Made by a program: the position numbers
Origin: a virus
Taxonomy: Duplodnaviria > Heunggongvirae > Uroviricota > Caudoviricetes
Virus record (IMG/VR): IMGVR_UViG_2609460344_000006
Span: 1 to 12,509 of that record
Reading direction: 5' to 3' (one strand)
DNA length: 12,509 bases
Part shown: positions 1 through 6,000 of the stretch, piece after piece
How the letters are laid out: every line of letters starts with the position of its first letter
Position numbering within the stretch: position 1 is the first letter of the stretch

Positions 1-3000
1 TTACCGTCCGCCGGCTGCGGAATATTTGCGACCGCATCATTCACCGCCTGCTGCAGTACATCCGGATCATAATCACGACCATCACGCGGTACCGGAATGG
101 CCCCCACAGCGTCATCCACCATCGCCTGCAGAACCGGACGCACCTCATCCACCGTCACATGCTTCTGTAATACCGCCGACAGGGAAGTCAGTTTCTCTTC
201 AAACGCTTGTGCCTGCGAGGCCATCTTCCCCTCAAATGTGCGCTGTAAATCCGCCAGCACTGTGGAGAATTCTTCTCCCAGTGCACGAATAATGGACAGT
301 TCCCGTTCCGTCATTTTCTCAGTATCCCCCTGAACATCGCTTTCACCGCATCACGCTCTGTTTCACTGATTGCCTTATTACCGTCAGATGCGCCGTCAGG
401 CAGCTGTGATGAAACTGTTTTCCCGGCAGACGAGAACGGATCCTCACGGGCATCACGACGGGACAGCGCCTCCAGACTGTAGTTCTGCTGCTGAAGATAC
501 AGTGCATCACCGCCGGCCAGGGGCGGCAGGTTCTCCCGTTTACGGGCCTCATTGGGCGTGAGAAGCGTATTTTTCACCGCATCCCCCAGCGTTTTCATGC
601 GCCGCTCACTGTCCATTCTCAGCAGCGTGGTGACATCAAATTCTGTACTCTCGTTTTCCCCCGTTTCCAGCGCCTCATCCAGTAACAGTTCAATGGACTC
701 AATCAGCGTCTGCAGACACTGGGAATAATACTGCTGCTCCAGCGCCTCCACGTTGTCACTGGAAGGCGGTTGTCCCACGCCAATCTTGTAGGCCGGGACA
801 CGGAACACCGAACAGACAATTTCAGCGGTCATCTTCAGTTGTTCCACCGTCTGCGCATCCACAGGTGAAAACGTCGTGGGGTTGTATTTTGCCCCGTTGC
901 TCAGAATGGCCGTTTTCCCCGCATTTTCGCCTGTATACCCGCTGTCCCAGTTGCTCTTCAGTTTTTTCGCATTTTCTTCCGTAATACTGCCGGGGATCTC
1001 AATCACCCCGGACGGCCTGCCGCCATTTCTGAAAAAAGACGTCGAATTTTCCTGAATATGATGCCCCTGCGTGGCCGCCAGCCCGGCGGCATACACCGGC
1101 GGCAATCCTATAAGCGGATGAAAAAAACAGTTAAACCGGTCGTGGATCACTTCCCGGGCAGGCACCGTCACCGCCTCCGTGATCCCGCAGTTCCGGTCCG
1201 GCGTGATGCGGTAGAACACCTCGCCGTCATCCGCCACCAGAGGTTCAACCCGGCTCCAGTCCAGAATACGCAGTTCTTTGATCTGCCCCCGGGCATTACG
1301 GATTTTCAGCACCACCGTATTGCCGTGACGCAGTTTGGCGTTCAGCCACAGTTCAAAAAACTGGATGCGGTTCTGCTGGGCGTTGGGACGACGACAGAGG
1401 CGGGCAATATCCCCCCGGCGCGTTTCCCTGCGTATCCCATGCGCATCCGTCTGCATAAGACGCAGCCGCATTTTGGCGATATCCTGGGATATCAGCGAAA
1501 TACATGCAAACACCGCATGAAAGGAGAGGACGGCTTCAGGATCGGCTTTCACGCCCTGCTGCCAGGCGCCGGAAAAGGGCTCAGCCACCGCCTGAAACAG
1601 GCTGGTCCAGCCCGCCTCTCTTACGTCACGTCCTGATTTCTGGTTTTTTCGGGTTCGCCGTAAAAGGTTCCACATTCGCCATGCTCCGCATCACGTTTCT
1701 TTTTCTGACCTGCCGGACGTCGCACCGTGATGTACTCCGCCTTTCCCAGGCGAACCAGCACCTCCGCACACGGCTGTGCCACATCACGGATATCCCCGGC
1801 CCGGGCATCATGCGTGCCCTGCAGATATCGGATCTTTGCCATAACCTGTTACGGGAGGCGCACGCCTCCCGTCCTCCTTATCAGACTCAGCCGCCGGACG
1901 CACTGCCGTAGTTCACTCCGGTGATCACCGCCACCGCCGCGGTACGGCGACGACGCCAGTTGATCCAGCGCTCCGCACGGATGGCCACGCTGCCTGTCTG
2001 GAACATGGAAACCAGCTCCACCGGGGACGGCGTGGTACTGTCGCCGCCCGGCTCAGACTGCATTTCCAGTGATGCCTCGCGGGACATATCCACTGCCACG
2101 CCGCCGTCATCCGCCAGATAAATATCCGGGGCATTCACCAGCACCAGCTGGTCACCCACGTACTGGGAGACAATCACCGGCAGCCCCTGGAAGGAGCCAC
2201 CCAGCAGGGTCATGTCCGGGTATTCCTTCTGACCCAGCGCATTTTTACGCATGGACAGTGCCAGGGCATTGGTGCTGGACATCAGCCAGACCGCACCGGT
2301 GGGCTGCAGGTTTGCTGCCACAAACTGTCCAAACGCAGCCTCTGCATCCGCATCCGGGTTACCGGTTGATGCCGTGCCCTTCACATCATGGGTGATGGAC
2401 GCCGGGGAGACATCTGCCACTGCGGCTTTTTTCGGGTCCACAAAGTCTGTATCCAGACGCGCCACCACCGCTTCCGCCAGCGCATTACGGACCAGTGCAT
2501 CAGCAGCCGGACTGGAAAAACGGATCAATTCTTCCGTCAGTACCGCAATGGCCGACACCTTCGCATGACTGAAGGTGATGGATTCAAAATCAAACTTCGT
2601 CAGGGGTTTTGCCTTACCCTCACCCACCCAGCCGGCAGCACCGCCGGACACCTGGGCGTGCACACGGATATTGAATGGCACCTGACGAAGTGCAGGGATC
2701 CCGCCCTGACCAAATCGCCCGATAATGGTCTGCGGACGCAGGTAATCAATAAAGTCCTGTGCGTATTCCTGATATTCAGACAGGCTGCCTGCCCACTGCG
2801 GATCCGTGGTGGTCCCCGCGCCCACTGCCGATTTCAGGACATGATGCAGACGACTGTCATCCGGATACTGACGACGGGCCACTTCCAGGGCTTCAGATCG
2901 GACGCCTTTAGCCGCAGCCAGCGATTTGGCAAAGCGGGCGAAGCCAATCCCCTTATCCAGTTTCTGCTCCACACGGATCACCGGCGCAGAAGCCACCGCG

Positions 3001-6000
3001 GCCACATTCCCGTTACCGGCCTGTTTCACCGGCTGCGCCGTGGCGGCCTTACCGGCTTCCAGTTCACGCAGGCGCTTCAGGTGCGCATCCACCTGACGGA
3101 TTTCCGCTGCGGTGTTGTCGTAATGCTCTTCCTCCTCCACATCCAGCGTGCGCCCTTCCTCTGCGGCTTTGGTCATGACCTCCTCAAGGGAGGCTGCCAG
3201 CGCTGCACGCTTGTTTTCAAAACTTTTAATCTGTTCGCCAATATTCATTATGGTCTTTTCCTTATGAAAAACGGTTGTTGACTGTGCCGCAGCGCCGGCA
3301 GAAGATGCGATTTTCACCACCGGTTTCCGGTTGCCGGACGCGGCAGAAAACGGGCGGTCGTAAGATTTAATGGTCCGGATGGTGCATTCCGCATTCGCGG
3401 GCACGGTGACGGCAGACACCTCCATCAGTTCCCAGCGCAGAAAATGCAGTCCGCCTCCGTCCAGAAAGGTGTATTCATGGGGACGGAAGCCCACGGACAG
3501 CCCCCTGACCAGCCCGGTCTTAATGGCCGCCCAGACCTCATCCAGCCGGGCAGCCAGTTGCGACGGCATATCCGGTACGGGCTTCACCAGTGTTGCCGTG
3601 ATTTCCAGCCCTTCGCTGACCCGGCGCACCGTACACTGCCCCACCGGGCGGGAATGGTCATGCTGCCAGAGAAACGGGATCGCACTGCCAAACTCCGCGC
3701 CCTCCGGCTCCAGGATGTCACCATCCCGATCCGGAGAAGGCGTTGACGCAATCCCGGTGATCACCCGTTCATCCTCACTGAAGGATTTCACCGTCAGCAG
3801 GGAACAGGCCCGTTTAAGAGTCACATCAGCCTCCTGAAAATAAAAAAACCGCCGGAGCGGTTCGTGATGGTTACAGTGTGAACAGGGTTATATGAAAAAA
3901 ACCGCATATTCTTTCTTTTTCGGTTCCGGGTTAAGGGACATCAGGGAGACCGCATTGAACAGCGCCATCAGCGGGTCAATTTTTCCCCGTCCACTGGCCT
4001 GTTTGGTGATAAGAATGGCGTTACCTTTAGGCTCCACCCGGGCATTGCCGACACACCAGGCCATCAGGGGCTGGTCACCATGCACCAGCACCCCTTCAGC
4101 CAGTTTGCGCTCGGTGGTTTTAATGGCCCCGCCCAGTTTCCAGCCCTGGCTTATCCCCACCACAATTCCGTCGGGGATCCCGGCTTCCGCCAGTGAATCC
4201 AGAATCTGTCCCACCCCTGACGGGTCAATACCGATATGGTCCAGTAACTCAGCCTCATGAATGCGACGCACATATTCCGCCACTTCCGCCGTGTCATCCC
4301 CGACACGCCGGACAATGGTCATATCTCCACAGGCAACAAGATCCTGAAACCGGGACGCCTCGCTCTTCCGTCGGACCACCGCGGTTTCATGCGCCCAGGC
4401 ATGGCCCCAGCCCAGCCATTCGCGGGTCTCCCGGTCACGCCCAATCACATACATCCCCAGCAGATCATCCAGCCCTCCGCCGTCAATCCCCACCGTCACC
4501 ACATCAGCACGACGCAGGATATCGTCCAGGCTGATACAACGGCCCTGCTCTTCCCAGAAATCAGCCCCCGCCCAGCGGTCAGAGCGCAGGGCAAGACCAA
4601 TTTCCACATTGGCGTGTTTTGACATGAACCCCCGGAATGTCTCTTCACCGGCTTCCCGGGCTTTACGGTACTCCCGGTACAGAAAGGCCTCATCCACTGA
4701 ATAGCCGAGATTCGGATTGACCATGGCGAGGTTTTCCATCAGCAGGTGAGCCCCGCTTTCCACCATTTCAGGAGGGTGTTCAAATATCACCGGCAGAAAG
4801 TGCGGATCATTAATTTTGCCGTCGCGCACATCCCGGGCGTACTGCAGTTTCTGTCTGAACACCCCGGCTGGCGGTTCATTCGACTGGGTGGTCGTATACA
4901 CCACAAACCCTTCCGGGCGGGAGGCAAGCCCGCCGATGGCTTCACGTAACATGTCCTCCGCCTTGTACTGCTTGCCAAACAGCCACAACTCATCAATCAG
5001 CGTCCCCACGGACTTGATACCGGACACCGTATTCGGATCGGCTGCCACCACCTTCAGGGTGGTGTCCGTCACCCGGTGGGTGATGGTCCGGATATGTGTC
5101 TGCACCTGACAGAGGTCATCCAGATCATCGTCCCGTCGTACCATATCCCTGGCAGGATTGAAGGCGTTGGCTGCCACCTCCACAGTCGGGGCCAGAATCG
5201 TGTAACCCGCCGCCTGCCGCCAGTTCAGTAACAGCGCCGTCATCATGATCCCGGCGGCCAGTGTGGACTTGCTGTTTTTTTTGGGTATCAGAATGAACAC
5301 TTCCTTGATATGGCGGACACCGGTCTGCGCATCGTAGGAGCCAAACAGAGCCGCCACCAGGTCAAACACCCACTGTGCACAGGACTCCCCGAACGTCGGG
5401 CTACCCGGTGCATCCACAATCCGCAGTTGTTTAAAAATCGCCAGGGCATGTGCGGCCTGGTCCGGATAAATCGGAGCCGGAATAATCGACAGCCCCTTTT
5501 TCAGGCGCTCTGCCCAGTCCGGGCAGGCTGTGCTCCATACAGGTATCATCCGTTGCCCTCATTATCGTTATTCACCACCAGTCGGGGTGGCGGTGGCACC
5601 GCAAAACGGTTAGCCGCTTTTTTCGCGGCATCACCTTTTGCCGATTTTTTACCGGTATCCCCTTTTTTATGGTGCGTGAACTGCGCCAGACGCCAGGCCG
5701 CATCCAGTGCCAGTTTCGGATCAATGCTGAGGTTTTCCACCAGGATCTGCCCCATAGCTTTCACCGGATCGGGAAGACCATCCTCCATATATTCAATACC
5801 ATGAGACATCACCGCGGGCGGTGGCATCTCCGGATTGTTTTCGTCCGGCTGTGGTATTGCAGCCGCCTCACGGCGACGGGGTTTATCCTCCTGCTCTGAT
5901 TTTTTCTGCCGGTAAACAGGAACCTCATCCACCTCCACCGTTTCGCACTGTTTACGGGCTATAAACGCGAGCACCTCCGGATCTTTTGCCAGCTGCGAGC

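Follow-up and report, generated by a model that had tools for sequence, protein, structure and literature searches.

How can a single gene that joins a prohead protease to a capsid protein supply hundreds of shell subunits and few proteases? The question is raised by a gene in a stretch of 12,509 nucleotides from a virus of the class Caudoviricetes (IMG/VR record IMGVR_UViG_2609460344_000006, positions 1 to 12,509), which as a whole is called the window here; all coordinates are window positions unless another locus is named, and all genes of interest lie on the minus strand. The gene, at 1887-3824, is the head-shell gene of a lambdoid (Shiga-toxin-type) E. coli prophage of the BP-4795, 2851 and YYZ-2008 group. 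The fused gene, its architecture and its position before the portal gene are already known, and what is new is the sequence evidence that the capsid part is probably also translated separately. We propose that the gene is probably a nested pair, in which a minor protease-scaffold-capsid protein is accompanied by a major scaffold-capsid protein made from a conserved internal start.

Three domains in one reading frame

The open reading frame (ORF) of 645 amino acids (aa) is intact and without frameshift from its GTG start, and the RefSeq annotation of an E. coli chromosome with 99.7% identity across the entire window contains the same 645-aa coding sequence (CDS). An earlier note on this DNA had read it as a prohead protease domain, a scaffold-like helical middle segment and a capsid shell domain, and each of these parts was recovered. 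Profile searches place both the protease and the capsid part above the Pfam cutoffs, with Peptidase_S78 (PF04586) at aa 48-152 (34.7 bits, cutoff 21) and Phage_capsid (PF05065) at aa 386-635 (52.7 bits, cutoff 24.2). TIGR01554 (major_cap_HK97), whose model takes in the delta domain, matches aa 204-584 (E=6e-22, 78.3 bits, cutoff 27.5), its position 3 aligning at aa 204. Nearly the entire protein, aa 1-639, matches positions 7-626 of the 626 in phrog_617, the 'major head protein' profile (E=3.3e-261).

The protease part shows 29% identity to HK97 gp4 over aa 21-156 (BLASTP, E=4e-8). In this alignment Ser110 is paired with gp4 Ser114 and His55 lies one residue off the column of gp4 His65, the two catalytic residues of gp4. 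Among 124 fused homologues of 38-54% identity, His55, Ser110, Glu135 and Ser137 are invariant or nearly so, with His55, Ser110 and Ser137 invariant in all 124, and on this sequence comparison the catalytic residues of the protease are under purifying selection.

In the AlphaFold2 model (mean predicted local distance difference test score, pLDDT, of 76) a beta-rich domain at aa 18-153 is followed by disorder at 154-192. The scaffold consists of two long helices, 195-222 and 229-262, which form a coiled-coil hairpin (pLDDT ~90), and of three short helices within 293-331; these helices, together with the TIGR01554 alignment, bear out the scaffold-like character of the middle segment. The HK97 fold begins at about residue 350, with a pLDDT of ~80-95 over aa 350-640. 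Sequence searches with the capsid domain gave little (BLASTP found no significant similarity to HK97 gp5, and a PDB sequence search returned a weak capsid match only, to Bxb1 at E=0.002), so a comparison of folds was needed to confirm it. Foldseek matched the C-terminal part to the capsid proteins of Bxb1 (9d9w, 1.7e-14), D3, HK97, T5 and others, with E from 1e-14 to 1e-9 and a TM-score, normalised to the target, of up to 0.76. In this one frame an HK97 gp4-type serine protease is joined to a delta-like scaffold and then to a major capsid protein of the HK97 fold.

A start codon kept inside the fused gene

The description of one gene and one fused protein is probably incomplete, given the conserved start that we found at codon 193. 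We compared the gene with 80 loci, each from a different species (37-71% identity; Alpha-, Beta- and Gammaproteobacteria for the most part); protease and capsid are fused in 65 of them and occupy separate ORFs in about 15, so that the window and the 65 loci together give 66 fused genes. The linker (aa 157-192) is hypervariable in both sequence and length among the aligned fusions, and a Met recurs at the first residue of the scaffold domain, after K/R-E/K-G-like residues. In relatives with separate genes the capsid protein begins at the position homologous to Met193. The codon at the scaffold start is a start codon in 66 of the 66 fused genes (61 ATG, 3 GTG and 2 TTG), and from the Val and Leu usage of these genes we obtain a chance of about 3e-4 that the five non-ATG codons, which encode Val or Leu, would all be start codons.

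The nucleotides upstream of this codon resemble a ribosome-binding site. Upstream of the internal start, the predicted duplex with the 16S anti-Shine-Dalgarno (anti-SD) sequence has a mean energy of -7.2 kcal/mol, whereas the 892 remaining in-frame ATGs in these genes average -2.7 (Mann-Whitney P=4e-25). The signal equals in strength those at true gene starts, for which the means are -6.6 kcal/mol (the genes' own 5' starts) and -5.85 (the 15 separate capsid genes, which begin at the homologous position). The spacing from the SD to the start is 4-9 nt in 62 of the 66 genes. Within the six upstream codons, AGG and AGA make up 46% of the Arg codons compared with 3% elsewhere (P=8e-15), GGA and GGG make up 53% of the Gly codons compared with 16% (P=3e-7), and GAG makes up 79% of the Glu codons compared with 56%. 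The observed SD is also stronger than in synonymous resamplings of the same peptides (-7.16 vs -5.45, Wilcoxon P=5e-10). Across the family, local GC content at the internal start is 0.50 while that of the gene is 0.61, and the fold energy of 60 nt is -9.8 kcal/mol compared with -18.2 at control ATGs (P=1e-31). The window copy reads AAGGA, 10 nt, ATG, with a duplex of -6.2 kcal/mol, a local GC content of 0.33 vs 0.60 for the gene, and RNA that is essentially unstructured. At the junction in Pseudomonas phage PAJU2, CAGGAGGGCAACGAC-ATG, the order is AGGAGG, 8 nt and ATG (-10.8 kcal/mol). A weak 5' start as a general down-regulator of the long form was also considered and rejected, as most 5' starts across the fused loci are ATG (61 ATG, 5 GTG) and no trend was seen.

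On the proposed reading, the two starts would be used in the same frame, the 5' GTG (3824) yielding the 645-aa protease-scaffold-capsid protein and the ATG of codon 193 (3248) yielding a 453-aa scaffold-capsid protein, the equivalent of HK97 gp5. By analogy with HK97, both products would co-assemble round the portal by means of the scaffold and capsid parts that they have in common, the long chains, a minority, would bring the protease into the procapsid, and the covalent tether would stand in for the C-terminal targeting tail of a free gp4-type protease. The protease (His55, Ser110) would then remove linker and scaffold, leaving a mature shell protein of ~300 aa. On balance we favour extending this to the lineage as a whole, so that its 'fusion' genes would be nested pairs in which the full-length chain is a minority product that serves only to attach the protease to a capsid subunit.

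The main rival is a single-product polyprotein. Only the 645-aa chain would then be made, every subunit would carry protease and scaffold, the N-terminal parts would be digested, and the signals at codon 193 would be relics of an ancestral separate capsid gene. The ORF is continuous and annotated as one CDS everywhere, the SD at its 5' start is strong, the existence of relatives with separate genes makes relics plausible, and by our own rough estimate the ~340 extra residues per subunit would still fit a T=7 procapsid. However, a neutral relic should decay at 38-50% protein identity, and the amino acids and the length of the linker have almost wholly diverged even in all-fused clades (in the Enterobacterales, the window and loci L004-L009 and L019), yet the start codon, the purine-rich SD, the AGG, AGA and GGA codons, the low GC content and the open RNA are kept, and the Met is replaced by GTG or TTG only. 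We therefore consider the polyprotein rather unlikely. An improbable alternative is that the junction motif acts on the protein or on elongation, either with K/R-E-G...M as an autoproteolytic site or with SD-like RNA that pauses ribosomes and lets the protease fold before the scaffold emerges. The motif does coincide with the boundary between the two domains and lies in a disordered linker, a place where cleavage would be expected, and the synonymous resamplings are still more SD-like than the background (-5.45 vs -2.7), which means that the amino-acid sequence itself is biased. The upstream residues, however, share no peptide motif (KEG, KKG, PEEGD, QEAK, RKES, KGAR and others) and are conserved as purine-rich nucleotides with rare codons, and a cleavage site leaves unexplained the start codon in 66/66 genes, the GTG and TTG swaps, the fixed spacing of 4-9 nt and the local loss of RNA structure.

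That the fusion itself is an artefact or a product of decay, through a frameshift in sequencing or assembly or through a stop codon lost in a dead prophage while two genes are the functional state, is very improbable. In its favour, the HNH endonuclease gene of the same prophage copy is interrupted by a nonsense codon, the tape-measure gene of the closest genome is frameshifted, and about 15 of the 80 relatives have two ORFs. But identical architecture occurs in phages that are inducible, plaque-forming or sequenced from virions (2851, BP-4795, phi330 and PAJU2), the ORF is continuous in the window, in a 90%-identity cluster of 9,916 sequences and in 65 of the 80 distant loci, and more than 1,000 clusters at 50% identity extend across phyla, with catalytic residues under purifying selection. 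The hidden frameshift that the earlier note had named as a possible pitfall is effectively refuted by these comparative data.

Several points weigh against a nested gene of this composition. The 80 loci are related and the P values treat them as independent, which makes them optimistic, and at P<=0.05 only 11% of the loci, taken singly, exceed the synonymous null computed for each. The internal SD of the window (AAGGA, 10-nt spacer, -6.2 kcal/mol) is below the family mean, while its 5' SD is stronger (-10.3). Frequent fusion and fission, if they occur, could mean that some of the start signals are young relics, and ribosomes elongating from the 5' start could occlude the internal site. For the protease part, the TIGR01543 equivalog model gives a score of 46.4, under its cutoff of 59.

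Relatives, gene order and neighbouring genes

The 6.2-kb head-packaging block matches 94 phage records at 90-99% identity, and the closest (95-99% at the DNA level) include BP-4795, 2851, YYZ-2008, Stx2-1717 and JLK-2012; many Stx1a, Stx2a and Stx2c phages match as well. The gene is annotated in the matching records as 'putative major head protein/prohead protease' (BP-4795 ORF56). The protein is 99.8% identical to its counterparts in phages 2851 and phi330, and 98.8-99.8% identical to BP-4795 ORF56 and its homologues in 2851, YYZ-2008, Stx2-1717 and the O157 Stx1a and Stx2c phages. The BP-4795 group has the same module (small terminase subunit TerS, large terminase subunit TerL, fusion, small ORF, portal, ORF59 and a gp6-like connector), of which the window is another copy without substantive difference, and the records of this group annotate no internal start. 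Close relatives occur in Salmonella, Enterobacter, Klebsiella, Serratia and Pantoea. An exhaustive search returned 1,181 clusters at 50% identity (E<=1e-30) across bacterial phyla, and the best 150 clusters are mostly full-length fusions of 630-680 aa. In the cultured Pseudomonas phage PAJU2, ORF003 is 48% identical over its full length and is annotated 'structural protein; prohead protease fused capsid protein'. The order there is the same as in the window (terminase, fusion, small ORFs, portal, ORF59-like gene), although PAJU2 has another host and tail module, and two small ORFs between capsid and portal where the window has one.

The earlier note had also given the order terminase, fusion, small ORF, portal as a departure from the canonical order of HK97 and lambda, and profile searches and synteny support this. 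The canonical order, with the portal gene between terminase and protease, was not found in the window, while the HK97 record has TerL, portal, protease, capsid. We placed TerS, TerL, protease, capsid and portal in the 80 loci by profile searches, and where the flanks are long enough, TerS, TerL, protease and capsid (fused or not) and portal follow one another in this order on one strand. The gap between capsid and portal has a median of 269 nt and usually contains a small ORF. Because the order also holds where protease and capsid are separate, it is a trait of the lineage and not a consequence of the fusion; judged from these sequences, the portal after the capsid is a fixed trait of a large HK97-like lineage and not peculiar to the window. 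The combination of fusion and order, which the earlier note had held to be worth documenting, is thus real but already on record, in BP-4795 ORF54-58 and PAJU2 ORF001-006. The observation as stated adds little: public records of phages have contained the gene, its fused architecture and its place before the portal for some twenty years, and thousands of enterobacterial prophages carry them. One paper lists, without comment, a transcript of an insect-associated enterobacterial prophage in which the genes have this order (PMC8156552), and a full-text literature search found no discussion of the gene order of these fusions.

Fused and separate forms interleave on a rough neighbour-joining tree of the capsid domain, with at least 10 changes by parsimony, as would be expected if the capsid start is always kept. 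In several unfused relatives (L047, L064, L076 and L079) just one stop codon lies between the protease ORF and the capsid ORF, which share a frame. Readthrough of this stop at a low level could still give a tethered protease in these four loci.

Read 5' to 3' on the minus strand, the window holds lysis genes and BRO/KilA genes, an HNH endonuclease gene, TerS, TerL, the 645-aa ORF, a 73-aa ORF, the portal gene and a further gene that runs off the window (Table 1). The AGGAGG of the 645-aa ORF lies 5 nt upstream of its GTG. For the 73-aa ORF there was no match in Pfam or NCBIfam, phrog_829 alone being found; among the 80 loci its homologues are detectable only in close relatives, and in most loci a small ORF fills the same slot. 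The terminator-like hairpin sits in the 63-nt gap between TerL and the fusion gene, within a presumed single late operon, and putative terminators are found at similar positions near the head genes of HK97. The 9-bp GC hairpin has a TAAGGAGGA motif (1880-1872) on one side and the small ORF's ATG (1842) on the other, and could stabilise or process the 3' end of the capsid mRNA, or draw the TAAGGAGGA SD nearer to the small-ORF start.

Table 1. Features of the head-packaging region, in window coordinates except in the last row
Feature	Position	Strand	Basis or remark
TerS, small terminase subunit (187 aa)	5546-6109	minus	PF03592 Terminase_2 E=1.2e-8; phrog_641
TerL, large terminase subunit (553 aa)	3888-5549	minus	PF03354, PF20441; phrog_9, phrog_7622
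Terminator-like hairpin and T-run between TerL and fusion gene	3846-3863	minus	hairpin scan; fold z = -2.1; function putative
SD AGGAGG (3835-3830) and GTG start (3824-3822) of full-length ORF	3822-3835	minus	read from sequence; anti-SD duplex -10.3 kcal/mol
Full-length ORF, 645 aa: protease, delta-like scaffold and capsid	1887-3824	minus	ORF scan, Pfam, PHROGs, NCBIfam, RefSeq CDS
S78 (HK97 gp4-type) prohead protease domain, aa 18-153	3366-3773	minus	PF04586; BLASTP to HK97 gp4; AlphaFold2 pLDDT ~80-88
Protease His55 codon	3660-3662	minus	
Protease Ser110 codon	3495-3497	minus	
Linker, aa 154-192, disordered and hypervariable	3249-3365	minus	pLDDT <50; low conservation, many indels
Proposed internal ribosome-binding site: AAGGA (3263-3259), 10-nt spacer, Met193 ATG (3248-3246)	3246-3263	minus	sequence and family-wide conservation
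Delta-like scaffold domain, aa 193 to ~340 (C-terminal boundary approximate)	2805-3248	minus	AlphaFold2, TIGR01554, capsid gene starts of relatives
HK97-fold capsid shell domain, aa ~341-645	1890-2804	minus	PF05065; Foldseek
GC-rich 9-bp hairpin without T-run, directly after capsid stop codon	1851-1872	minus	fold: centroid -18.9 kcal/mol for 55-nt stretch, z = -2.0
73-aa ORF between capsid and portal; 55-nt overlap with portal start	1621-1842	minus	phrog_829 (unknown function) E=4e-39
HK97-family portal gene (454 aa), downstream of capsid gene	311-1675	minus	PF04860 E=1.5e-81; TIGR01537 E=4.8e-105; 27% identity to HK97 gp3
Post-portal gene, 5' end (BP-4795 ORF59 homologue), ATGA overlap with portal stop, off window edge	1-314	minus	
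Full post-portal gene in other loci	BP-4795 ORF59, L002 7929-9314; PAJU2 ORF007, L084 6054-7058		

The gene that follows the portal (461 aa in BP-4795 ORF59) was considered as a second protease or scaffold, which would have brought the module nearer to the canonical one, and rejected, since its product is repeat-rich and fibre-like with a CBM5/12-like end. The BP-4795 ORF59 protein has five tandem repeats of ~54 aa (…PVPRDGRDYDP…PQPADGKS…) and, at its C-terminus, a CBM5/12-like domain. In about half of the 80 loci a homologue comes after the portal gene, with true collagen repeats in some Rhizobiales and a fusion to the portal in L007. In RefSeq the portal and post-portal genes are labelled together as a single 'frameshifted portal' pseudogene, apparently through an error of annotation. 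Our guess is that the protein is a head fibre or has a decoration role.

HK97-type terminases are reported to need an HNH protein. The HNH endonuclease gene of the window (6401-6766, minus strand) has a premature stop at codon 25 (6692-6694), so the prophage copy in the window may be defective in packaging, while the gene is intact in the copy of the 99.7%-identical genome (L001 15400-15765). In that closest E. coli prophage the tape-measure gene (L001 1868-5109, outside the window) is annotated as frameshifted. The HNH nonsense codon and the tape-measure frameshift suggest that some copies of this prophage are decaying.

Known nested genes and the meaning of a probable internal start

HK97 gp4 and gp5 offer a close comparison. 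The protease family is the same, as are the Pfam and TIGRFAM families and the fold of the capsid protein, which likewise has its scaffold built into the N-terminus, and the portal, connector, gp10-like and terminase families are shared. HK97 differs in that gp4 and gp5 are separate genes in different frames with the portal before the protease, whereas the window has one frame that lies before the portal; the scaffold region is ~150 aa in the window protein and 102 in HK97. The same concept of architecture is found in recognised annotation classes, namely NF045541 ('prohead protease/major capsid protein fusion protein') and, in actinobacteriophages, 'major capsid protease fusion protein'. The window protein belongs to a different sequence family from NF045541, whose NCBIfam model matches its protease-scaffold part only, with 54 bits against a cutoff of 525.

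[quoted passage not shown] In these pairs the short product is the more abundant, and the shared part delivers the protease into the procapsid. By its sequence features the window gene has what marks the lambda C/Nu3 type, an internal start codon in the same frame, preceded by a putative ribosome-binding site, where the shared C-terminal part begins. In all three known systems the shared part is a free scaffold, whereas here it would be the scaffold domain together with the capsid protein; and the two products have been shown experimentally in those systems, whereas for the window gene they are deduced from sequence alone. The nested protease and scaffold of the archaeal virus HFTV1 were demonstrated by ribosome profiling (bioRxiv 10.64898/2026.09.13.751334). 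A full-text literature search found no description of an internal start in protease-capsid fusions, although earlier publication is possible.

Whether or not the two genes are fused, the succession TerL, protease-capsid, portal stably marks a large HK97-like lineage in many Proteobacteria, and helps in the annotation of prophages. Current annotations of the fused genes list one product where two may exist, and an internal start would answer the question of stoichiometry with which we began. If the nested reading is true, the principle at work in lambda C/Nu3 and herpesvirus UL26/UL26.5 would apply not only to free scaffolds but also to the capsid protein. The ease with which the lineage flips in evolution between fused and separate genes would be explained as well, as the gain or loss of a stop codon after the protease would often be tolerated.

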